From: Terriglobia bacterium | Lineage (GTDB): Bacteria > Acidobacteriota > Terriglobia > Bryobacterales > Bryobacteraceae | DNA: 64,000 bases | NCBI GenBank assembly: GCA_963849535.1 | Contig: CAWKHJ010000004.1 | Span: forward strand, 195,977-259,976 | Reading direction: 5' to 3' | Program-made: the position numbers and the translations under genes | The notes under the pieces: model-generated | Database searches by the model: none | What the model saw: the letters and a program-made list of their open reading frames with translations, nothing else | What the model was told of the DNA's origin: nothing | Shown here: positions 7,897 to 64,000 of the stretch, piece by piece | Layout: each line of letters starts with the position of its first letter | How positions within the stretch are numbered: position 1 is the stretch's first letter

Positions 7897-8772
7897 ATGC
7901 ACACGATGAATCGCAGAATGTTTCTCATGGGAGGGGCGGCTGCTTCGGCTCTCCTCACCGGCACGCAATATCTATCCGCCAATCCGCTTGGCCTGCCGAT
8001 CGGGTGCCAGACCTATCCTGTGCGCAAGTCGATCAGTACAGACTTCGCGGGCACCATGAAGGGATTGCGTGCAGCAGGGTTCACTCAGATTGAATTGTGC
8101 TCGCCATACGGCTACGCCGATTTTTCGAGCCTCCAGAAATACAAGCCGCAGGAGTTACGGCGCATGCTGAACGACTGGGGACTGGGCTGCATCTCCGCGC
8201 ACTGGGCGCCGACCGAGCTCTTTCAAAAGGCGGACGAGAGCATCGCGTATGCGAAGGAGTTCGGCATGACGCAGATGGCAATCGCCGCGCTTGGACCGTT
8301 CGATTCTAAGGGCACCGAGACAGTCGACGACGTGAAACGTTACGTGGATCCCTTCAACGCCTTCGCCGAAAAGGCGCACGCGGCGGGCATCGCGGCATTG
8401 CTGCACAATGAGGGCTTCGTCTCCGAGTATATCGACGGCAAACCGGTTTACGACATGATGATTGCCGAGCTCAATCCCGCCACTACCAAGCTGCAGTTTC
8501 AGGTCTCTGCCTGGCAGAAGGGCTACGACCCAGTGACCTACTTCCACAAGTATCCGGGCCGCTTCCTCTCGATGCACTGCCAGGACTGGGTGAAGGACCC
8601 CTCGACCAAGTCTGGTTTCCGCGAGGTTCCGCTGGGGAAGGGCGTGGTGGATTGGAAGGCCGTGTTTACAGCTGCAAGAACAGGCGGCGTGAAGAACTAC
8701 TTCGTCGAGCTTGAAGAGGATCCGGCGCTGATGCCGCCGAGCGTGCCTTACCTGAAGTCCCTGAACGTGTGA
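7897..8772 (+). CDS. sugar phosphate isomerase/epimerase (xylose isomerase-like TIM barrel), Tat-signal
   Basis: The N-terminus has a twin-arginine-like leader (MNRRMFLMGGAAASALL). The body has TIM-barrel AP-endonuclease-2-like features (FTQIELCSPYG..., LLHNEGF). Confidence 0.75.
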   Translation: MHTMNRRMFLMGGAAASALLTGTQYLSANPLGLPIGCQTYPVRKSISTDFAGTMKGLRAAGFTQIELCSPYGYADFSSLQKYKPQELRRMLNDWGLGCISAHWAPTELFQKADESIAYAKEFGMTQMAIAALGPFDSKGTETVDDVKRYVDPFNAFAEKAHAAGIAALLHNEGFVSEYIDGKPVYDMMIAELNPATTKLQFQVSAWQKGYDPVTYFHKYPGRFLSMHCQDWVKDPSTKSGFREVPLGKGVVDWKAVFTAARTGGVKNYFVELEEDPALMPPSVPYLKSLNV

Positions 8773-8888
8773 AGCGTACTCTGTCGAGCGGAAGCCGTCG
8801 TTTACGGTGACATAAGCGCGCGCATTTGCGGCGAAGGCCGTGCGACGCCACATTCGGGAGTCCGTACCGGGCAGAAGCTTGCTTGCGC

Positions 8889-9080
8889 TCAGGGTTCGCG
8901 TTCGAGAAGTTCTTTCAATTTCGCCAGTTCGATATCGACTTCCTTTGAGGCGGCGTCGAATGCATTATCATCTAGAACCGGCGGCTGGAAAAACGTCATG
9001 AGGAATGTAGAGCCCTCGCCGTTTGGAATAACCCGCGCCGGAACTGTCCAGGATGCCTGCGGGTCCTTCCAAACATGATC
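8889..9080 (-). pseudogene. 3' remnant (about 64 codons) of a gene cut by the IS630 insertion (possibly SRPBCC-like)
   Basis: The coding-looking frame DHVWKDPQASWTVPARVIPNGEGSTFLMTFFQPPVLDDNAFDAASKEVDIELAKLKELLEREP* starts exactly at the IS left end. The rest of track ORF 8889..9200 is IS sequence. Confidence 0.4.
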
Positions 9081-10207
9081 TAGCAGGCCTGTCGCCGAGA
9101 AACAATTAGCATTAGAGCGGTGTCTAAGGATATGCCCTTTGTTGCCGAGGCGATCGCATTGACAGTCGACGAGCGCGTCGAGTTGGAACAAATGACGCAA
9201 TCCCGGACCTTACCTGCGGGGGATGTTTTTCGGGCGCGGCTCATTGTCATGCTCGCCAACGGCTTGCCGTACCGAACGATACAGGAGCGACTCGACACCA
9301 CGGCCCCGACGATCTCGCGTTGGAAAGAGCGGTTTGTGAAAGAGCGCATAGCGGGCCTGCTTGAGATCCGGCACCCAGGCCAGAAACCTAGCGTGATCAC
9401 GCCGGCGTTGCAGGCCAAAGTCTTAGCTGCGACACGGCGGAAGCCGAAGGATGGGGCGACTCACTGGTCCTGCCGCAAGCTAGCCGAGCAACTCGGAATC
9501 AGCAAGGACACCGTACAGCGCATCTGGCATCGGACCGGTTTGAAGCCGCATCGATTGGAGCGTTACATGGCCAGCGATGATCCGGAGTTTGAACGCAAGG
9601 CGGCTGACATCATTGGTCTATATTTGCATCCACCGCAACATGCAGCCGTGTTCTGTCTGGATGAAAGGTCGGCCATTCAGGCGCTCGACCGGCTCGACCC
9701 GGTTCTGCCGCTGTCGCCAGGGCGAGCCGAGCGCCACGGCTTTGAGTACTATCGCCACGGGACGTTGTCGCTGTATGCCGCGCTGGACGTGCGCAGCGGC
9801 AAGATACACGGCAAAACAGCAGCACGTCACACCAGCGATCAGTTCGTCGATTTCCTCGGCGAGGTCGTTGGGCTGTGCAAGCCCAAGCAGGAAATCCACG
9901 TGATCCTCGATAACCTCTCGGCCCATAAAACGCATAAAGTCGCGAGTTTCCTCGAAGACCACCCGAACCTGAAACTCCACTTCACACCAACCTATTCGTC
10001 TTGGCTCAACCAGGTCGAGATCTGGTTCTCGCGCATCGAACGCGATGTGATCGCACGTGGTGTCTTCACTTCCGTTCGTGACCTCTCCCGCAAGCTCATC
10101 CGCTACGTTCGCGCCTACTCAAAAATAGCCCGACCATTTCGGTGGAAGTATTCTGATCCCCACCATCGAGTCAAACCATGCTAATGACTTCACTGAGACA
10201 ACACTAG
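9080..10207 (+). mobile_element. IS630-family insertion sequence, complete
   Basis: It has a single DDE transposase ORF. The imperfect terminal inverted repeats are TAGCAGGCCTGTCGCCGAGAAACAATTAGC (left) and GCTAATGACTTCACTGAGACAACACTA (right), with TA at both junctions. Confidence 0.8.
9120..10184 (+). CDS. IS630 family transposase
   Basis: 354 aa with an N-terminal HTH (LPYRTIQERLDTTAPTISRWKERF) and a C-terminal DDE region (ILDNLSAHKT...TPTYSSWLNQVEIWFSRIE). Confidence 0.9.
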   Translation: MSKDMPFVAEAIALTVDERVELEQMTQSRTLPAGDVFRARLIVMLANGLPYRTIQERLDTTAPTISRWKERFVKERIAGLLEIRHPGQKPSVITPALQAKVLAATRRKPKDGATHWSCRKLAEQLGISKDTVQRIWHRTGLKPHRLERYMASDDPEFERKAADIIGLYLHPPQHAAVFCLDERSAIQALDRLDPVLPLSPGRAERHGFEYYRHGTLSLYAALDVRSGKIHGKTAARHTSDQFVDFLGEVVGLCKPKQEIHVILDNLSAHKTHKVASFLEDHPNLKLHFTPTYSSWLNQVEIWFSRIERDVIARGVFTSVRDLSRKLIRYVRAYSKIARPFRWKYSDPHHRVKPC

Positions 10208-10283
10208 CCGGATGACAGACGCCGTTCCAAGGCCACGCTGGAACTTCGGAGCCGCTGACCTTCCGCTAGGCTTCCTTTGTCCC

Positions 10284-10934
10284 TTATATATGTGCACTGG
10301 TACTATGCCAATGGAAGAGCTTATGGGTAATCTTCCATTCGCCGCTCACTCTGAGTAAGGTGAACACGTCGGAGGCGCGGACGTTGCCGCCCGCGAGTTT
10401 GCCTGACCAGCGCTGCACGTCCAGGTGCACGATCGCAATCGTCTCGATAATCTCGATCCGTGCGAAGCGCGGTTCGAGATTCGGTGCCGGACCATTCCTC
10501 GTGATCCACTCGAACACGTGTTCAATCGAACCACTGTATTCGACCCCTTGGCAATATCCTGAGATGGTAGCCTCCGGGTGGAAGGCAGGACGCATGAGTT
10601 CACCGTCACCCGCGCGAGCGCCCGCAATGTAAAGATGCATCGTCCGAGTGATCGCGTCATGATCGACCAGATAGGCGTTGGCGGATGACTCCGGCTGGAA
10701 CTGCCGGACTTCATCCTCAGGTATTCGGCCTGGATACTTCGTGCGTAACTGATGCCACGCTTCGATCTCGTGCCTGAAGGCGAAAACGGTGTCCTGCTTC
10801 TGGTGCCCACGGCGGTGGACCGGCATACCGTCCCTCGCCTCCCAGCGGCGCACAGTGCGCTCGCTGCGTTCGAGGTAGGCCGCTATCTGCTTCCACGACT
10901 CAAGCGTCTTCTGCGGTGTGTTTCGCTCAGACAT
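10284..10934 (-). CDS. HTH domain fused to NTF2-like (putative lumazine-binding/SnoaL-like) domain
   Basis: The N-terminal HTH reads SWKQIAAYLERSERTVRRWEARDGMPVHR. The C-terminal ~125 aa are paralogous to 11056..11442 (shared LMRPAFHP, NGPAPN, FHWH). The start is placed at ATG 10934. Confidence 0.6.
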   Translation of the reverse strand: MSERNTPQKTLESWKQIAAYLERSERTVRRWEARDGMPVHRRGHQKQDTVFAFRHEIEAWHQLRTKYPGRIPEDEVRQFQPESSANAYLVDHDAITRTMHLYIAGARAGDGELMRPAFHPEATISGYCQGVEYSGSIEHVFEWITRNGPAPNLEPRFARIEIIETIAIVHLDVQRWSGKLAGGNVRASDVFTLLRVSGEWKITHKLFHWHSTSAHI

Positions 10935-11055
10935 ACACAAGCCTCGCTGAAGAAATATATCACGAATTTGCGCAATGCTGTCCGAATTTGCGTGGCCGAC
11001 TTTTACCAGCTTTGTCCGTTGACGCCGTCGTCTGCCAGACCCTACTGTTGTATCC

Positions 11056-11442
11056 ATGGGAACCAGTAAATACCCGACTGAGTACGACGAAATCGTGAAC
11101 ACCATGCAAATGTACATCGATGGAAGTAAGCAGGGAAAAAGCGACCTTATGCGTCCCGCGTTTCATCCGCATGCCTCTTTCTTCGGCTACGCCGACGAAC
11201 AACTTGCCATTGGAACACCATTTCTCTTCGACTGGATCGACAAGAACGGTCCCGCTCCGAATATTCAAGCTCGCCTGGTGAGCGTCGACATACTGGAATC
11301 CATCGCGGTCGTTCGACTGGAGGTCGCTGATTGGTCGGGCACCTTGGCTGGTTCTGACGTACGCATGTCCGATCTCTTCACGCTCCTCAAAACGCCCAGT
11401 GGGTGGAAAATTATCCAGAAGGCGTTTCACTGGCACGCCTGA
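11056..11442 (+). CDS. NTF2-like (putative lumazine-binding) family protein
   Basis: 128 aa with MQMYIDGSKQGKSDLMRPAFHPHASFFGY...WIDKNGPAPNIQARLVSVDI...GWKIIQKAFHWHA, the SnoaL_3-like pattern. Confidence 0.65.
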   Translation: MGTSKYPTEYDEIVNTMQMYIDGSKQGKSDLMRPAFHPHASFFGYADEQLAIGTPFLFDWIDKNGPAPNIQARLVSVDILESIAVVRLEVADWSGTLAGSDVRMSDLFTLLKTPSGWKIIQKAFHWHA

Positions 11443-11755
11443 GAGCCAACATTCGTTAAGAAAGCTGTAGTTGGCGACTTGCAAGTACGACGGCAAAGCG
11501 CACAACGCTGGATTCGGGGCCTTCAGTACCCCCAGGATCATCACAGATCGAATTGAAAGGGCTTACCACAGGAATCCCAGCCGTCCAACATCGGCGGAAG
11601 ATATAGAGCGTAAGTCACCTTTTGGCTTACCCTCAGCTAACGTGCAGCTAATCTCGGCTGCATTGATTCAGCGCACTGCCTGGCGAGATCTGTCTGGCTG
11701 TTTGCTGCTGAGTCTAAAAACAACAAATATTTGTAATTGAAAGGAGAGATAGAAC

Positions 11756-56854: not shown

Positions 56855-57802
56855 ATGATCCTACTTCGAAGTCATAATCGCCTGGGCATGAGCGCACTAA
56901 TGGCGCTGGTCGTAATGCTGACGGGCGATCCTACTGGAGCCGCGGAGGAGTCAGTTCGAACTACCGAGGTCACGCCCCACCTGCTCGTCTTCGCCACTAG
57001 CTCGGGCAACGTCATTGCGTCCGTGGGAGCGGACGGGGCTTTTCTCGTAGGAACACCATCTGTAGCGAGCACTGCCCAGATCAGCAGAGAGCTTGCCAGC
57101 CGGACGAAGTCGGCTGCGCGCTACGTTGTGATCTTTCCGGAAGATCTGGCGCACTCGGAAGGCGATGCGGGATGGGGAAAGCGCGGCGCCTTTGTCGCGA
57201 TGCAGGAGAAGGCGCTGGAACGTCTGGGCGGCCACGTTATGGGCACCCCACCGCCTCTGCCGTCCCGCTTGATCGAGCTCGGGGTCGACCGCCCGCGCAT
57301 TGCTTTCTCAGAGGTGCTGACTTTCGATCTGAACGGAGAGGCGATACACGTCGTTCATCAGCCGCCAGCGTACAGCAAGGGTGACGCCCTGGTGCATTTT
57401 CACGTGGCGGGCCTGCTTTATTTCGGCGAGGTATTTCCGGGCGATGGCTATCCGGAGTTTGACCCGCGGCAAGGTGGCAACTTAGATGGCTTTATAAAGA
57501 TGCTGAGTCCCTGGACGGAGCCTGGGGTTCGCGTTGTGCCGGCTCGCGGGAAGGTCATGAACGGCACCGATCTCAAAGCTTTCTGCGAAATGATCGCGAC
57601 CGTTCGCGATCGTGTGCGGCATATGATCGACGCCGGCCGGACGGAGGATCAAGCTGTAGCGCGCATCCGACCGCGGAATTCGACGTACGATGGGGACACG
57701 GGCGCGTGCCTCCCGACACGTTTGTCCGCGCGATTTATGCAGCGCTCAAAGCGCCACGGAGCCGCTAATTTTGGATGCGGGGACGCGCGCTTGGTTTGCT
57801 AG
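56855..57802 (+). CDS. MBL-fold-like secreted protein (degenerate metal motif), 3' frameshift; likely true stop at 57768
   Basis: After ..GRTEDQAV (~57655) the family-like reading AHPTAEFDVRWGHGRVPPDTFVRAIYAALKAPRSR* is in the +2 frame. The track ORF tail (RIRPRNSTYDGDTGACL..) looks non-coding. Confidence 0.6.
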   Translation: MILLRSHNRLGMSALMALVVMLTGDPTGAAEESVRTTEVTPHLLVFATSSGNVIASVGADGAFLVGTPSVASTAQISRELASRTKSAARYVVIFPEDLAHSEGDAGWGKRGAFVAMQEKALERLGGHVMGTPPPLPSRLIELGVDRPRIAFSEVLTFDLNGEAIHVVHQPPAYSKGDALVHFHVAGLLYFGEVFPGDGYPEFDPRQGGNLDGFIKMLSPWTEPGVRVVPARGKVMNGTDLKAFCEMIATVRDRVRHMIDAGRTEDQAVARIRPRNSTYDGDTGACLPTRLSARFMQRSKRHGAANFGCGDARLVC

Positions 57803-57823
57803 ACTAGAGCATTCCGGAGAAGC

Positions 57824-57899
57824 GGCCAGGTAGCTCAGTCGGTAGAGCGCAGCCCTGAAAAGGCTGGCGTCGGCGGTTCGATTCCGTCCCTGGCCACCA
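57824..57899 (+). tRNA. tRNA-Phe (anticodon GAA)
   Basis: A cloverleaf was folded by hand: acceptor GGCCAGG/CCTGGCC, D-arm GCTC-AGTCGGTA-GAGC, anticodon arm CAGCC-CTGAAAA-GGCTG, T-arm GGCGG-TTCGATT-CCGTC, discriminator A, and an encoded CCA. Confidence 0.9.
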
Positions 57900-57902
57900 C
57901 AG

Positions 57903-58187
57903 AATCAATAAGTTACAGGGCAGCCAACGACATACGGGGGAGCGCTCATTGGGAAACCAGTCGCATGCCCGGACCTCCACATCGAACGCTTCGCGATCGG
58001 CCAGCTTGGCCAGGGCGTAATCGAGCTCCGGCAGGCGGCTTTCTGGCCAATTCCAACTGAACGTCTTAATGTGAAGATTATCGACCGGAGTCCACTTGAC
58101 CAAGGTTTCCGGTCGGAGCGACGCAATCAGCCGATCAAGACGTAATAGCATTTCGACAGGGAGTTCGATAGCGGTAAACAGTCGCAT
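57903..58187 (-). pseudogene. thpR: RNA 2',3'-cyclic phosphodiesterase (ThpR/LigT-like), N-terminal half only, truncated at the tRNA 3' end
   Basis: MRLFTAIELPVEMLLRLDRLI...VDNLHIKT...AFDVEVRACDWFPNERSPV follows the ThpR first-half pattern. The second HxT lobe is absent, and the open frame simply reads into the antisense of the tRNA. Confidence 0.5.
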
Positions 58188-58673
58188 AGAGCAATCTACT
58201 GGGCTAATGTTCTAGCTTATCTTCGGATTCTGCGCATAACAAATCCGATTTGAAATAACCGCTTCGAAGAGGTTAAATTGAACGACGGTTAGGTTAGGGG
58301 TCTACGAATTTAGTCGAAAACGCAAATCTGAAGCCATATTCAATATGTCCGGAAATGAAGAGTCCGGTTCTGGGAAACCACTCCGGACGAACACAGGCCC
58401 GAGGAGGTCAAATTGGCGGGTGGTCGGCTATGCTTCCTTGTGCTTAAGAGCACCGGTGCGGGAGGTGCAAGCGCTGTTTACGTTCGACAATTCACGGAAG
58501 CGAATGTAATCGCACTGGGTGTACTCTGCTTTGCAGGACGCCTGATTGCTATCACTGCTTTGCAATAGAATCTGTAATCCTAATCTGTGATTGGACAAGC
58601 ATAGAAGGTATGCCCGTAGAGGGGGTAAAGGACATTCGCTGGATGGCCAGCAGATCCATCAAGATAAGTCGAC

Positions 58674-61600
58674 ATGAAATCACACGATACCCGAATCGGA
58701 GCAGTAGGAATTGACCACGTCGAGAACTCCTCCCCGCCCGCGTTCAAACTAACGCGCCTTTTCGATACTAAATCCCTAACGCCGGTCGCCATTGCCTCCC
58801 CCTATAAAACCCGGGTCGAAGGCCGCCCCGACTCGGACTTGATGCGCGAGTTGCGCTGGTATCTGGAACACTTTCTCGATTACCCATTCCATCCCGAAAT
58901 AGGTCATGCCGAGCACGTCCTCGATGCGCTCAAAGCCTGGGGCACTCAAGCCTTCAATGCGCTCTTCGACCGTCGCGACGCCGGAGACTGGCTTGCTGGC
59001 TCCAGCATTCTGCAAATCCGCAGCGATGATCCCTGCATTCTCTCCTGGCCCTGGGAAGCCCTGCTGGATCCACAAGCCGGTAGTTACTTGGCTCATCAGC
59101 ATCGTGTGGAACGCCGGCCTAACCGACTCCCTGACCCGCTGTCTATGGCCGACCTTCCTGGTAATCGCGTTAACATCCTGCTCGTGGTTGCGCGTCCCTA
59201 TGAGGAGGATGTCCGCTACCGCTCGGTCGCTCGTCCGCTGATTGAGTTGATCCAGTCACGAGGCCTGCCCGCGCATGTCGATGTGTTGCGGCCGCCAACT
59301 TTTGACCAGCTGCGCGATCACCTGCGCGCCCATCCCGGTTACTACCACGTCCTCCACTTTGACGGTCACGGGGCTTACGGCGATGGCCACGGCCAGTATT
59401 CACCCCATCGGTTTCGGGCACTCCACGGCTGCCTGGTGTTCGAGAACGAAGCTGGGGAACCCGACCCTAAATCCGCCAGCGATCTAAGTGTCCTATTGCG
59501 CGAATACGCGGTACCCGCCGTGGTCCTGAACGCCTGTCAGTCCGCCACCCTGGATGAGAAAGCCGAGGACGCCTTCGCTACCGTCGCCACGGCACTTCTT
59601 CAAAGTGGAATGCGGAGCGTAGTGGCCATGGCCTATTCGCTGTATGTCAGCGGCGCACAGGTCTTCTTGCCCGCATTCTACCGCCGTCTGTTCGAATCCG
59701 GCAGTGTCGCGGAGGCAGTCCGCGCTGGGAGGCAGCAGATGCTGGCCAACAAAAACCGCGTCTCCGCTTGTGGCCCGTACCCGCTGGAGGATTGGCTGCT
59801 GCCGGTGCTCTACCAGCAAGATCCGCTGGACTTCCATTTCGCCACGCAAGCCAAGCTTGAGATCCGCGAGTCGCGTTTGCCTACTGAAGTACGAGGCTAT
59901 CGCGACGAGTACGGCTTTGTGGGCCGCGACGGTGTAATTCTTGAGATGGAGCGGGCGCTCCACCGGAAAGCTCCCTGCATTCTGGTGCAGGGCCTAGGAG
60001 GTGTCGGCAAGACGACCTTAGCGCGTGGCTTCCTGAGCTGGTTGGATGAAACCGGCGGGCTGGATCGCGCGCTGTGGTTTGACTTCCGCGAGATCCGCAC
60101 TGCCGAGTATGTGCTCAACCGTACGGGCGAGGTGTTCTACGGGGAGAACTTCGGCGCGGCATCGAATAAGCTTGAACTGCTCGCCCGTGCGCTGAAAAAG
60201 AATCGGGTCCTGATGGTGTGGGATAACTTCGAATCGGCGGCGGAAAACCTCATAGGCGAGGACCGCACGGAGTTAGGCCGCTTTCTGGATGTCATTCGCG
60301 ACACGCGCGGGAAGGTGATCATTACCAGCTGTTCGCGCGAGGAATGGCTCGGGCCGTCTCGGCGGTTCGAACTCGGTTTGCGTGGTTTGGATGGCGAGGA
60401 GCGCTGGGAATACTGCGACGCCATCCTTCGCGAGCTTGGATTGAAAGTGAAGCGGGACGATCCGGAGCTGAGCAAACTGATCAACCAGTTGGCCGGCCAT
60501 CCCCTCGCCATGCGCGTGGTGCTGCCCAAGCTGGAGCACATGCCTGCAGCGAAGGTGGCGGAGGCGCTGCGGACCAATCTCGCCGAGCTGGGTTTAAATG
60601 AGCAGGAGGAACAGAGCCGGCTCTTTGCGACGCTTCGTTTTGTCGAGCAGGGATTGCCGGAAGAGTTGCGGCCGCTGCTGGGACTGGTTGGGCTGCACGA
60701 GGCGTATGTGGACGCTGATTACCTGGAAGCGATGGCGAAACAGGTCAATCCTAACTGGACACGCTCACAGATTGACCAGCTCCTCGCGGCGCTCAGCGGT
60801 GCCGGACTGGTGCGGGAGATCGGAAACGCTACTTGTGAGATGCACCCCTTGCTCACCAGCTATCTGCGTTCCCAAAGTGCTCCGGAAGCCTGCCAGCACG
60901 CCTTCGTAGACATTATGGGTAGCGTTGCGTATGACCTGGTGCCGCGACCACACCACGACCAACGCATTCCATTTCTCCTGTATGGGGCGAATTTTCGCTT
61001 CGCCCGGCATCTCTCAGAAAAGTTGGATATAAATAAGCGCTTCGTCATGCTGACCCAATCAATCGGCGTGTACGCGGTGCATTCTCGAGAGTTCATTGAG
61101 GCCTCCCGGTTGTTTGCGCAATTGGCCCAGTATGCGGCGGCACGTGCTGACTCCAGCGAGGAAGCCGCCGCGTATCACCAACTGGGAATTGTTGCTGCAG
61201 AGCAGCGAGACTTCCAGGCGGCACAGGATTGGTATCTCAAATCCTTGGCCATTTCAGAGAAGTTGAAAAACTTGGAATTTAAGGCTAATACGTGCTATCA
61301 ACTGGGCAGGGTGGAGCACGAGAACCGCAATCTCGAGGCGGCACGGGACTGGTATGTTGAAGCCCTCTCCGTTTCGGAGGGGCAAGACCAGCTTCAGCGC
61401 ACCACCTCTATTTATCACGAAATTGGGAATATCGCCCAGGAGCAAGAGGATTTCGAGAGTGCCAGAGAATGGTATCTCAAATCCCTCGCCATCTCAGAGA
61501 AGCTGGGCGACCTGTATAGTGCTGCCAACACCTATCACGAGTTGGGCATCATTACATACGAACAGGAGGACTTCGAGACAGCGAGAGAATGGTACCTCAA

Positions 61601-62471
61601 ATCCCTCGCCATTTCCGAAAGGCAAGGCAGCCCGGGCAGTGCAAATGCCTATCACGGGCTGGGAAATATCGCTTGGCGACAGCGAGATTTCGAGACGGCG
61701 AGGGAATGGTTTCTGAACTCCATTACGCTTTCAGAGCGATTGGGCAACTTGCATGGTGCCGCGCTTAGTTATCAACAACTAGGAAGAATCAGCCAGGAGC
61801 AAGGGGATCTTGAGACAGCACGCGGGTGGCATCTCAAATCCCTCGCCATCTTAGAAAAGATAGGCGATCCCCAGAACGCTGCTCGTAGCTATGACCAACT
61901 GGGAAGGATCGCCGAAGAGCGGCGTGATTTCAAAGCGGCACAGGAGTATCTTCTTAAATTCGTCACCATTTCGGAGCAATTAGGCAAGCTGCGCGATGTA
62001 GCCGTCACATATCACGAATTGGGCATCATCGCCCAGGAGCAAGGGGATTTCGAGACAGCGAGAGAATGGTATCTCAAATCCCTCACCATCTCCGAAGAGC
62101 AAGGCAACCTGCATGATGGTGCCAGTGCCTATCACCAACTGGGAATTATTGCTGCGGAGCAGCGTGATTTCGATGCGGCACGCGAGTGGTTTCTCACATC
62201 CCTTTCCATTTCAGAAAACTCCGGCAAGCTCCGCAATGCTGCCCGCACGTACGGCGAACTGGGAGTTCTCGCAGCGCTACAAGGCAGATTCGAGGAGAGT
62301 GGGAGATGGCTTACTCGCTCCAGCAGTGAGTTCCAACGGATGCAAGACCAGCACGCAATGGAACGCAATTCCCGGAACTTCCTTCTGACGTATCAGCTAG
62401 CATCCCCGGGCGACAAAGAAAAACTCACCGTCATGTGGCAGGCAGCGGGTCTCGGGCGCTTTCCCGCCTAA
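58674..62471 (+). CDS. CHAT (caspase-like) protease domain + NB-ARC/STAND P-loop NTPase + TPR-repeat protein
   Basis: 1265-aa intact ORF. The CHAT dyad contexts are YHVLHFDGHG (His232) and AVVLNACQSA (Cys288). Walker A is GLGGVGKTTLA (Lys446) and Walker B is VLMVWDNFE. About 10 tandem 40-aa TPR-like repeats fill the last 400 aa. Confidence 0.9.
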   Translation: MKSHDTRIGAVGIDHVENSSPPAFKLTRLFDTKSLTPVAIASPYKTRVEGRPDSDLMRELRWYLEHFLDYPFHPEIGHAEHVLDALKAWGTQAFNALFDRRDAGDWLAGSSILQIRSDDPCILSWPWEALLDPQAGSYLAHQHRVERRPNRLPDPLSMADLPGNRVNILLVVARPYEEDVRYRSVARPLIELIQSRGLPAHVDVLRPPTFDQLRDHLRAHPGYYHVLHFDGHGAYGDGHGQYSPHRFRALHGCLVFENEAGEPDPKSASDLSVLLREYAVPAVVLNACQSATLDEKAEDAFATVATALLQSGMRSVVAMAYSLYVSGAQVFLPAFYRRLFESGSVAEAVRAGRQQMLANKNRVSACGPYPLEDWLLPVLYQQDPLDFHFATQAKLEIRESRLPTEVRGYRDEYGFVGRDGVILEMERALHRKAPCILVQGLGGVGKTTLARGFLSWLDETGGLDRALWFDFREIRTAEYVLNRTGEVFYGENFGAASNKLELLARALKKNRVLMVWDNFESAAENLIGEDRTELGRFLDVIRDTRGKVIITSCSREEWLGPSRRFELGLRGLDGEERWEYCDAILRELGLKVKRDDPELSKLINQLAGHPLAMRVVLPKLEHMPAAKVAEALRTNLAELGLNEQEEQSRLFATLRFVEQGLPEELRPLLGLVGLHEAYVDADYLEAMAKQVNPNWTRSQIDQLLAALSGAGLVREIGNATCEMHPLLTSYLRSQSAPEACQHAFVDIMGSVAYDLVPRPHHDQRIPFLLYGANFRFARHLSEKLDINKRFVMLTQSIGVYAVHSREFIEASRLFAQLAQYAAARADSSEEAAAYHQLGIVAAEQRDFQAAQDWYLKSLAISEKLKNLEFKANTCYQLGRVEHENRNLEAARDWYVEALSVSEGQDQLQRTTSIYHEIGNIAQEQEDFESAREWYLKSLAISEKLGDLYSAANTYHELGIITYEQEDFETAREWYLKSLAISERQGSPGSANAYHGLGNIAWRQRDFETAREWFLNSITLSERLGNLHGAALSYQQLGRISQEQGDLETARGWHLKSLAILEKIGDPQNAARSYDQLGRIAEERRDFKAAQEYLLKFVTISEQLGKLRDVAVTYHELGIIAQEQGDFETAREWYLKSLTISEEQGNLHDGASAYHQLGIIAAEQRDFDAAREWFLTSLSISENSGKLRNAARTYGELGVLAALQGRFEESGRWLTRSSSEFQRMQDQHAMERNSRNFLLTYQLASPGDKEKLTVMWQAAGLGRFPA
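61170..62340 (+). repeat. intragenic tandem array of ~120-nt units (one of 117 nt) encoding TPR-like repeats
   Basis: The recurrent DNA block AGAGAATGGTA(T/C)CTCAAATCCCTC(G/A)CCAT occurs at 61464, 61584 and 62061. The peptide consensus is YHxLGxIAxEQxDFExAREWYLKSLAISExxGxL. Confidence 0.7.
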
Positions 62472-62852
62472 ATTTGAACGATGATCGCCATTAACGACGA
62501 AATTTCAATCCACATTTTCAAAGGCAACCGCTCAAGCGGGCCTCTGACCGCATAATAACCCTCGTAAAGCAAGAATTGTGGAATGTAGAACGTCATCGTC
62601 GTACGCTTTGATGTCCCCCGGGAGGAACCTCATCTTTGGAAGCTTCGATCGTGCCCAGATTGGCACTACTGCGGCCTTAATTTCCGAGCGGCTGATGGCA
62701 CGGTAGCCGACGGACTCACATCATTAGCCTTTTACCGAATCTTCCGCTGTGACGTCTCGAGTCTGCCAAAACACAAGGGCCAGCCTCTGTTAAGCTGTAT
62801 CAAGTCTGCGTGTGGAATGTGCCCATTAGCGAGTGGAGAGTAGAGAACGGTC

Positions 62853-63959
62853 ATGTCGATCCAAAGATTAGCGATCGTTGTCCCGGGAATTCTAGGGAGC
62901 GCTCTGTACTCGCCGCGTCGACCCGTAAATCTTGAACTCTGGGGCGAAAATCTTTACAGTAATTACGTCGGCCTGATAGACCAACCTGGTCTTCTCGAAT
63001 TTCGCGGCACGGCAGCGCACGCGCGGATCATCAAGAAGGTTTTCATCTCAAATAAAATACTCTGGCCCAAAGCTAGTCTTTACGACGGCCTCATTGAGCG
63101 GCTGTTGCAGGACTCGGAGTTCGGACCATCTTCAGTGCTCGAATGCGCGTACGACTGGCGCGACTCGATACTTAATTCTTCTGACACAATCGTGGCATCG
63201 ATCTCCAAACAGTGGAAGCTCGACCTGCGCGCTACGCCCTCATCGACCGAACCAAAGCTAGTCTTATTCACTCACAGTTTAGGCGGCCTTGTCGTGAGGG
63301 CGGCGGTTGCGAAGGGAACCTTGAACCCCGACCGCATCGATCGATTGATCCACATCGGCACCCCACTTCGTGGGTCGCCATCCGCATTCCGTACCGCCTT
63401 CTCTAAAACGGATCTTCCTATGTTCGACGAGCTGTTTAGATTTCTCAGAGTTCTCCGTAGGGAAGATTTCAAAGCTATGCTTCTAGCTTCCTTTCGAACG
63501 TTTCCTTCGGTTTTTCAGCTGATGCCGCACGCTGATATTCGATATCTTTTCTACTCTCCGCTTCTTCGTGGGAACCCACTCGCCGAAGATATCATCTCGA
63601 AAGAAATGTTGTCTCATGCCCGTGAGGGCCACGATGCAGTTCGCGGTTCAGATCTCATCCTTTTCCAAAGACGCGTCCCAGTTTTCACTATCTATACGGA
63701 AGCATGTGCCAGGAAGAAAACAGACTATGAGTATCGAGTTAAGGCCATAGCGCGGCCGGCGAGCTACGAAATCTTAGGTGTCCATCACAGTGACTTCACC
63801 GGCGACGGAACCGTGCCGTCGTATTCCGCAATGGGAAGCGACCTGTGCAAGAGGGTACCTCTTGCAGATGTGAAACATGCTCAAATGTGTAGCTCTAGGC
63901 ATGTCATTAACTCTGCCATGAAGCTGCTCGACACGTCTGCTACGGAGATGTCAACGTGA
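62853..63959 (+). CDS. LCAT/PGAP1-like alpha/beta hydrolase (putative lipase/acyltransferase)
   Basis: Motifs in family order are VVPGILGSAL, YDWRDS, LFTHSLGGLVVRAA (nucleophile elbow), IGTPLRGSP and TGDGTVPSYSA. Confidence 0.7.
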   Translation: MSIQRLAIVVPGILGSALYSPRRPVNLELWGENLYSNYVGLIDQPGLLEFRGTAAHARIIKKVFISNKILWPKASLYDGLIERLLQDSEFGPSSVLECAYDWRDSILNSSDTIVASISKQWKLDLRATPSSTEPKLVLFTHSLGGLVVRAAVAKGTLNPDRIDRLIHIGTPLRGSPSAFRTAFSKTDLPMFDELFRFLRVLRREDFKAMLLASFRTFPSVFQLMPHADIRYLFYSPLLRGNPLAEDIISKEMLSHAREGHDAVRGSDLILFQRRVPVFTIYTEACARKKTDYEYRVKAIARPASYEILGVHHSDFTGDGTVPSYSAMGSDLCKRVPLADVKHAQMCSSRHVINSAMKLLDTSATEMST

Positions 63960-64000
63960 GTGCGATCCGATTCTTTGGTGTTGGTAAGAGCCGGTTGCAG
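63956..64000 (+). CDS. start of a further ORF translationally coupled to the lipase gene (truncated by window end)
   Basis: The GTG overlaps the lipase stop (GTGA). The frame is open (VSAIRFFGVGKSRLQ) to the end of the window. Confidence 0.3.
   Translation, partial: MSAIRFFGVGKSRLQ

Follow-up and report, generated by a model that had tools for sequence, protein, structure and literature searches.

The DNA analyzed here is a stretch of 64,000 nucleotides from a Terriglobia bacterium (contig CAWKHJ010000004.1; hereafter, the window), and the element in question is the block at its right end, from 57.9 to 64 kb. In this block, a tRNA-Phe gene and a truncated thpR gene are followed on the plus strand by a large open reading frame (ORF) for a 1265-amino-acid (aa) CHAT-NB-ARC-TPR protein, by an ORF for a 368-aa lipase of the LCAT/PGAP1 type, and by the first codons of a further gene (gene 3) that leaves the window (Table 1). 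The lipase ORF starts 381 bp 3′ of the end of the large ORF, and its stop codon overlaps the GTG start of gene 3 (GTGA). An earlier note on this DNA, made from the sequence alone, had read the three genes as one candidate conflict system. Its description of the parts was borne out, including the position of the block beside tRNA-Phe and a truncated thpR, which ARAGORN, Rfam, and Pfam recovered. The proposed three-gene system was not, since relatives of the large gene and relatives of the lipase were never found together.

The large protein has the tripartite architecture of effector, STAND NTPase, and repeats in one polypeptide. Both contexts of the CHAT dyad are intact (YHVLHFDGHG with His232 and AVVLNACQSA with Cys288), and the NTPase carries Walker A (GLGGVGKTTLA with Lys446), Walker B (VLMVWDNFE at 512 to 520, VWD(517)NFE), and a GxP/GLPL-like motif (GHPLAM); the dyad and the Walker motifs lie at the very residues the earlier note had given. 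In an alignment of 37 homologues, His232 was invariant and Cys288 at least 90% conserved, and the columns of GLGGVGKT, VWDNFE, and GHPLAM were likewise conserved to at least 90%. Pfam matched CHAT at aa 116 to 363 (E value, 1.7e-22) and NB-ARC at aa 435 to 653 (E 3.3e-5), the latter together with AAA_16. The NB-ARC score of 23.7 bits barely exceeds the gathering score (23.5), and the assignment of the NTPase to the NB-ARC clade is marginal; sequence searches of the PDB added weak matches of this domain to the STAND protein PH0952 (6mfv) and to ZAR1. The C-terminal part gave strong TPR_12 and TPR_10 matches over residues ~800 to 1260 (TPR_12, E 4e-55). Where about 10 tandem 40-aa repeats had been proposed, we found nine clear units and one degenerate unit, with a mean pairwise identity of 47%. 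These features, with the catalytic residues conserved in homologues, are consistent with the division of labor suggested in the earlier note, in which the TPR array would act as the sensor, the NB-ARC domain as the switch, and the CHAT module as the effector.

Tandem Repeats Finder detected a 240-bp period within the TPR array, and a 240-bp tandem duplication comprising two TPR pairs (73% DNA identity) lies inside it. By analogy, this duplication points to repeat-unit expansion of the kind seen in rapidly diversifying sensors of NOD-like receptors (NLRs).

The N-terminal ~160 aa, for which the earlier note could offer no assignment, are kept throughout the family and across phyla. An AlphaFold2 (AF2) model of aa 1 to 420 (pLDDT 80, pTM 0.84) was compared with known structures by Foldseek. 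The top match was Csx29 (E 2e-11 over ~400 columns), and further matches were SAVED-CHAT, DdvA, and separase, followed by caspases (CED-3 and caspase-9) and gingipain; the top matches ranged from E 2e-11 to 1e-8 at 11 to 18% sequence identity. The modeled fold of the CHAT module is thus that of the caspase-hemoglobinase class. Since the Foldseek alignment runs over ~400 columns of the model, the N-terminal ~160 aa appear not to be a domain of their own but the N-lobe of a CHAT module with two lobes.

The first 830 aa of the large protein retrieved more than 1,853 homologues, many of them 55 to 77% identical along this whole stretch, including the N terminus. They come mainly from Acidobacteriota (Tunturiibacter, Bryobacterales, and Candidatus Angelobacter) and range from 913 to 1447 aa, with TPR arrays of widely variable length. 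A scan of reference genomes yielded 51 loci with CHAT-NB-ARC-TPR relatives, in Bryobacterales/Terriglobia and in distant phyla, including loci from Zixibacteria, Thiohalocapsa, Nitrosomonas, Planctomycetota, and Methanothrix. When these loci were searched by tblastn up to 10 kb on each side, none of the 51 matched the lipase, gene 3, thpR, or a 167-aa protein (p167). No Pfam family recurred among the 71 downstream and 79 upstream neighbors of the relatives, nor did any alpha/beta-hydrolase recur among these 150 genes; the matches were to TPR pieces of the same gene, to housekeeping enzymes here and there, and to a few transposases. When every upstream ORF of 40 aa or more in the relatives was clustered, no conserved small gene of the EACC1/Pepco kind emerged. 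Furthermore, in a test of whether the CHAT gene had arrived with the island described below, the related CHAT loci proved non-syntenic with the window and devoid of tRNA-Phe. Because none of the 51 related loci holds the lipase, gene 3, or a recurrent neighbor, the large gene is, on these comparisons, a predicted stand-alone, single-gene unit.

Two observations were made on the side. In some contigs or genomes, two paralogous CHAT-NB-ARC-TPR genes stand near each other (P0118 and P0129, on one 61-kb contig). At several related loci, the gene is in pieces (for example, L012 5404..5826 and 8139..11450); many of these are long-read metagenome-assembled genomes, in which frameshift errors are likely.

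The lipase carries the motifs PGILGS (residue 11), YDWR (100), HSLGG (141), and GDGTVP (317), in agreement with the earlier description, and matches the Pfam families LCAT (E 9e-8) and PGAP1 (E 2e-6). Its Ser142-Asp318-His342 triad is invariant in nine homologues and in 30 distant ones. When the family profile was run against the PDB, the sole match was 4r1d, a type VI secretion system (T6SS) phospholipase, Tle4/TplE (E 8e-9), and this match spans only ~60 residues around the YDWR-HSxGG region. The hydrolase fold occupies all 368 aa and leaves no trafficking domain, and hydropathy analysis gave neither a signal peptide nor a transmembrane segment. The family is small, with about 11 close homologues before the matches drop to E ~1e-5 for a family of ~460-aa LCAT+DUF7379 proteins. 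Because viral contigs gave two lipase matches only, both distant (28% and 25% identity), the lipase and its partner are probably not typically phage-borne. Distant multidomain LCAT-like proteins were considered as a source of information on the pair and rejected, as they mostly carry secreted-type domains (NosD/beta-helix, Ig-like, and PPC) and represent generic extracellular lipases.

Other arrangements of LCAT-like genes were seen elsewhere. A 1,134-aa metagenomic protein (L080 7980..11381) has an LCAT/PGAP1-type lipase (residues 83 to 231) fused to a C-terminal CHAT domain (848 to 1082), and its gene is followed by an overlapping gene for an 824-aa protein with no Pfam match. On Streptomyces linear plasmids (L141 4760..8401 and L142 2313..8419), 490-aa LCAT-like proteins of ~24% identity are encoded head-to-head with a large STAND(AAA_16/nSTAND1)-WD40 gene; this locus adjoins a RES/XRE pair, and its layout was alike in the two Streptomyces plasmids inspected (H2 and H5).

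Gene 3 is complete in L001, an 8.4-kb contig recovered by exact-protein look-up, where it encodes 298 aa. The protein had no match in Pfam, in the PDB by profile search, or in PADLOC. An exhaustive search of 1.84 billion proteins gave 18 representatives of the family, and a word-indexed search of 5.8 billion proteins returned the self-match only. Within its first ~100 aa, residues 14 to 101 resemble CARDB-type Ig domains, and this is where CARDB-repeat proteins match; a helical linker and a C-terminal alpha/beta domain follow. Neither conserved catalytic-looking residues nor a hydrophobic N terminus, signal peptide, or transmembrane segment was seen in gene 3, and a single-sequence AF2 model was unusable (pLDDT 35).

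A gene 3 homologue is the next gene downstream of the lipase in L002, L003, L004, L007, L059 to L067, and L077, and this holds for every lipase relative of at least 36% identity whose contig reaches downstream. The homologues show 46 to 48% identity in L002/L003 and 28% in L007. In all, at least 13 further contigs hold the pair, and in no case is a CHAT gene with it. The L069 lipase (29% identity) is also followed by a gene, which was assessed as a gene 3 homologue and rejected (hhalign probability, 0.3%); thus, the lipase is, by sequence comparison, strictly coupled to gene 3 in the closer clade only. In two further contigs (L005 and L006; lipase 31% identical), the gene 3 domain is fused to the N terminus of a complete, 1,846-aa Type ISP/IIG restriction-modification (R-M) enzyme encoded directly after the lipase (hidden Markov model E ~1e-9; hhalign probability 97%, E 4.5e-11, 198 columns). 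The PADLOC R-M model covers residues 262 to 1845 of this enzyme, which has an extra N-terminal domain of ~260 aa (L005 5581..12179; also L006) and is translationally coupled to the upstream lipase. Such a gene pair could encode a restriction enzyme with a lipase as accessory effector. The unit is also coupled to a 254-aa gene further upstream, with PycTM and Mrr genes nearby.

Pair-bearing loci were searched in turn for the large protein, and none gave a tblastn match, be it to CHAT, STAND, or TPR; at least 3.9 kb of upstream DNA is available at five independent loci (L002, L004, L005/L006, L007, and L059). Co-occurrence across genomes, which the earlier note had set beforehand as the test of its proposal, was therefore found in neither direction. 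Genes near the pair include a D5 primase, a ThsC-like HIT protein, Mrr_cat, and GmrSD_N in L002; an integrase, TrwC, and IS1595 in L004; Mrr_cat, PycTM, and a resolvase in L005; NERD in L007; and two WYL regulators with DUF2779 in L060.

Contig L001 also defines the limits of the block. It is 100% identical to the window over 57937..64000 (6,064 bp) and extends 1,130 bp further. The 3′ 51 nt of tRNA-Phe, from the anticodon loop to CCA, are copied in L001 with 98% identity, ~7.2 kb downstream of the tRNA gene, and the copy is not a tRNA gene. Since tRNA-Phe and this partial direct repeat bound it, the ~7.2-kb block looks like an integrated island, or rather a remnant of one that lacks an integrase: no integrase ORF was found in 57.9 to 64 kb, and truncated thpR alone adjoins the tRNA gene. 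The window and L001 diverge cleanly between 57936 and 57937, inside thpR. The left arm of L001 (1..1240) holds thpR in intact form (243 aa, extended at its C terminus) and then a gene for a 167-aa coiled-coil-like protein; in the window, 37 bp of other sequence and tRNA-Phe are joined to thpR at codon ~84. The longer left arm of L001, together with the 51-nt repeat at its end, suggests that the integrase-proximal left arm was deleted in the genome of the window relative to L001.

Base composition varies within the block. The window has a G+C content of 56.2%, the large gene one of 57.6% (59.6% in its CHAT-NB-ARC part and 54.1% in its TPR part), the lipase gene one of 51.7%, and gene 3 one of 51.6%; the two intergenic regions stand at 47.9% and 50.7%. 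The AT-richness of the spacers and the lipase gene that the earlier note had seen by eye is thus real, and it is only modest. An Rfam scan of 57.7 to 64 kb matched the tRNA and nothing else, and promoter and terminator consensus scans of both spacers gave counts no higher than those in shuffled controls. The region upstream of the large gene contains neither a conserved small ORF nor an Rfam match. Directly 5′ of tRNA-Phe, at 56855..57802, lies a 315-aa ORF whose product has a hydrophobic N terminus like that of a signal peptide and no Pfam match.

A second TPR-CHAT locus at 15 to 18 kb, cited in the earlier note as decayed and as a sign of gene turnover, does exist, and it is in pieces: a 438-aa TPR ORF and a 317-aa CHAT ORF (Pfam CHAT, E 1.4e-69) stand ~850 bp apart. 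Its reading as a decayed paralogue of the large gene was rejected, since tblastn matched the large protein to the TPR part only. The CHAT domain there is a different, canonical C-terminal CHAT with no tblastn match to the large protein, and the locus looks like a disrupted TPR-CHAT gene from another family.

Table 1. Features of the 57.9- to 64-kb block, with the 15- to 18-kb locus and corresponding positions in contig L001
Feature	Position	Strand	Basis or remark
TPR ORF, 438 aa	15306..16622		15- to 18-kb locus
CHAT ORF, 317 aa	17475..18428		15- to 18-kb locus; Pfam CHAT
ORF of truncated thpR as called mechanically	57804..58187	-	Reads through tRNA-Phe
tRNA-Phe (GAA)	57824..57899	+	ARAGORN; Rfam tRNA, 70 bits; left border (attL-like) of block
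3′ 51 nt of tRNA-Phe	57849..57899	+	Copied at L001 8384..8434
thpR 5′ remnant (LigT-type 2H phosphoesterase), cut at codon ~84	57937..58187	-	Pfam LigT_PEase
Low-GC intergenic region, 486 bp, 5′ of large gene	58188..58673		47.9% G+C
Large ORF, 1265 aa	58674..62471	+	
CHAT (caspase-like, clan CD) protease module, aa 1 to 363	58674..59762	+	Pfam, AF2, Foldseek
NB-ARC-type STAND P-loop NTPase, aa 435 to 653	59976..60632	+	Pfam NB-ARC (marginal), AAA_16
TPR array (putative sensor), aa 822 to 1220, ~10 tandem 40-aa units	61137..62333	+	Pfam TPR_12, repeat register
240-bp tandem duplication inside TPR array	61793..62238		
Spacer between CHAT-STAND gene and lipase gene, 381 bp	62472..62852		Boundary between the two modules
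LCAT/PGAP1/Tle4-like alpha/beta-hydrolase (lipase), 368 aa	62853..63959	+	Pfam; profile match to PDB 4r1d
Gene 3 start (lipase partner)	63956..64000	+	GTG overlapping lipase stop; full 298 aa at L001 7260..8156

Taken together, these data make it probable, at roughly 0.6, that the block from 57.9 to 64 kb, with ~1.1 kb past the end of the window, is an island remnant carrying two independent conflict-type modules that are neighbors and not partners. The large gene (module A) and the lipase/gene 3 pair (module B) also differ in G+C content. Module A would be an NLR/Avs-like receptor, with a role in defense that we infer from its architecture. On binding of a trigger (by analogy, a protein from a phage) to its C-terminal TPR array, the NB-ARC NTPase would oligomerize and bring the N-terminal CHAT domains together, so that the His232/Cys288 dyad becomes active. 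The protease might cleave cellular proteins or itself, which would stop the growth of the infected cell or kill it, and it would do so with no dedicated substrate gene conserved beside it. In module B, a translationally coupled pair, the cytoplasmic Ser-Asp-His lipase is the presumed membrane-attacking effector. Its 298-aa partner, predicted to be non-enzymatic, with an Ig-like N-domain and an alpha/beta C-domain, may restrain the lipase or couple it to a sensor, and the lipase would be released on a trigger. The fusion of the partner domain to a restriction enzyme and the island contexts argue for a defense-type effector/adaptor pair rather than a secreted toxin with an immunity protein of the Tle/Tli kind. 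We tentatively propose, as one possibility, that the lipase and gene 3 form a two-gene module for phage defense or abortive infection that has not been described before. Its partner domain would serve as a portable adaptor coupling the lipase to sensors, separate at most loci and fused in one lineage to a Type ISP enzyme.

Several points weigh against the reading as two independent defense-type modules. The functions of both are deduced from sequence. The neighbors of large-protein relatives (n = 41) are mostly housekeeping or metabolic genes and not defense genes, no formal defense score being attached to this count, and the family thus lacks a defense-island signature. PADLOC v2, which the earlier note had recommended, did return matches for the large protein, all of them weak (TPR, SAVED_CHAT, and mad8), with no Avs/AVAST model among them. 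Many pair-bearing contigs are short (2.5 to 7 kb), so that an upstream CHAT gene could be sought at the five independent loci named above, and the right-hand tRNA repeat is seen in L001 and not inside the window. Modules A and B lie on the same strand, and with no terminator found in the 381-bp spacer, cotranscription is possible. Proteases or STAND proteins are linked to lipases elsewhere, in the lipase-CHAT fusion of L080 and beside the distant lipases of the Streptomyces plasmids, and zymogen pairs of a caspase and an alpha/beta-hydrolase have been published (Evans et al. 2025).

The last of these points could also be read as support for one three-gene system, in which the STAND-activated CHAT protease cleaves and thereby activates a lipase zymogen and gene 3 is a third component. 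Adjacency on one strand fits such a system, as do VMAP caspase domains, which always have a neighboring alpha/beta-hydrolase gene (Kaur et al. 2020, PMC7159879), and the activation of LcHydrolase by LcCaspase through double cleavage (Evans et al. 2025); like the L080 and Streptomyces arrangements, these published modules concern other, distant families. Against it stand the 51 CHAT-STAND loci devoid of lipase and gene 3, the lack of a recurring hydrolase among the 150 neighbors, and the pair loci with no CHAT, STAND, or TPR match. The constant partner of the lipase is gene 3 and not a protease, and a G+C gap of ~6 points separates the large gene from the pair. A single system is therefore very improbable. 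The large protein has also to be weighed as a cellular signaling or developmental protease, HetF-like or akin to a MalT-like STAND regulator, kept in many copies in Acidobacteriota for endogenous regulation. The housekeeping surroundings, the PADLOC result, the great abundance of the family in soil Acidobacteriota, and a weak NCBIfam match to the cell-division protease HetF (E 1e-7) would all suit that role. We nevertheless hold it to be rather unlikely, because the combination of effector, STAND, and repeats with a protease predicted to be active marks out conflict proteins of the NLR/Avs type, the loci are non-syntenic with variable TPR length and two copies on some contigs, and the gene lies here in a tRNA island beside another conflict-type pair.

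For module B, the rival is an interbacterial toxin-immunity pair like Tle4/Tli4, with no part in phage defense. Tle4/TplE is the closest solved relative of the lipase by sequence, an effector gene followed by a tightly coupled partner gene is the typical effector-immunity order, and both families have few members and evolve fast. Tli immunity proteins are known to reside in the periplasm, yet neither protein of the pair has a signal peptide or transmembrane segment, and the hydrolase fold fills the lipase with no space for a trafficking domain. No VgrG, PAAR, Rhs, or other T6SS gene occurs in the five informative pair contexts, and an immunity role sits badly with the finding that the partner domain is fused to a Type ISP restriction enzyme in L005/L006. 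We thus consider a toxin-immunity function improbable and favor a defense-type effector/adaptor pair.

With two independent modules as the preferred reading, the large protein represents a very large, partner-less caspase-STAND-TPR clade in soil Acidobacteriota, and its value is modest. Should its members serve as immune receptors, the targets of the caspase must lie in the host or in the protein itself, and not in a substrate encoded next door, and this would differ from the EACC1, Pepco, and hydrolase modules characterized so far. The pair is the more useful lead, being rare, strictly coupled, and recurrent in mobile and defense-rich DNA. It gives a testable hypothesis of a new lipase-based effector module and of effector-adaptor domains shared between defense systems; if the adaptor reading is true, the fused enzyme would combine restriction with a membrane-lytic backup of its own. 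Adjacency within an island had been mistaken for an operon, which bears on the weight to be given to such first-stage calls.

Comparison with known systems places the two modules differently. Koonin & Aravind (2002) and Leipe et al. (2004) reportedly described gene families that combine an AP-ATPase (NB-ARC) with TPR and caspase domains by comparative genomics. The earlier note knew of no named system with the present gene combination; for the architecture of the large protein, this had to be revised: caspase-like-STAND-repeat proteins had already been described computationally (PMC7159879 and PMC8195603), and a caspase-fused Avs12 (KrAvs12) has been tested experimentally (PMC12642450 and PMC13581612). 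The AP-ATPase families share with the large protein their domain vocabulary and their predicted role in NTP-dependent conflict or in apoptosis-like systems; the papers put the stress on multicellular bacteria, on systems of several genes, and on adaptor domains (EAD/Death-like), whereas the large gene is stand-alone, comes from Acidobacteriota, and has no detected adaptor domain. Caspase-fused Avs proteins likewise unite an N-terminal clan-CD protease, a STAND NTPase, and a C-terminal repeat sensor in one polypeptide with intact Cys/His and Walker motifs, and by analogy the same logic would be expected, from sensor binding through oligomerization to protease activation. They differ in that the target of KrAvs12 is EACC1, a small partner encoded upstream, which it cleaves (Evans et al. 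2025), while the family of the large protein has no conserved partner gene, no defense-island enrichment that we could see, and no Avs/AVAST model among its PADLOC matches. Apaf-1-like forms use WD40 propellers where the large protein uses TPR. Csx29 (TPR-CHAT, of the type III-E Craspase), SAVED-CHAT, and separase, the best structural matches of the modeled aa 1 to 420, share the two-lobed CHAT and the same dyad. The large protein departs from Csx29 in its reversed order, with CHAT N-terminal, STAND between, and TPR C-terminal, and its gene has no adjoining Cas7-11/gRAMP ORF and no CRISPR or SAVED context.

The published caspase/alpha-beta-hydrolase modules (Kaur 2020; LcCaspase-LcHydrolase) resemble the block in that a gene for a caspase-like protease lies beside one for a lipase-like hydrolase; the conserved adjacency of such modules is absent for both families here, and the lipase has gene 3. 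T6SS Tle4/TplE-Tli4 (PDB 4R1D) parallels the pair in its GxSxG lipase (HSLGG, with the invariant Ser142) and tightly linked partner gene, and differs in that the pair has no T6SS context, no periplasmic targeting of the partner, and a gene 3 without a PDB match. Searches of PADLOC v2 and of the searchable literature did not find the lipase/gene 3 pair. In its proposed role, the pair comes close to CapV, the patatin-like phospholipase of the cyclic oligonucleotide-based antiphage signaling system (CBASS) (PMC12480259), a cytoplasmic lipase that is inactive until triggered and then damages membranes; the module B lipase would differ from it in its LCAT/PGAP1-type rather than patatin fold, in the absence of a cyclase or nucleotide-sensing domain, and in its Ig-like/alpha-beta partner. 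These comparisons indicate that the large protein belongs to the already known caspase-STAND-repeat (Avs/NLR-like) class and that the lipase/gene 3 pair is the more novel element of the block.

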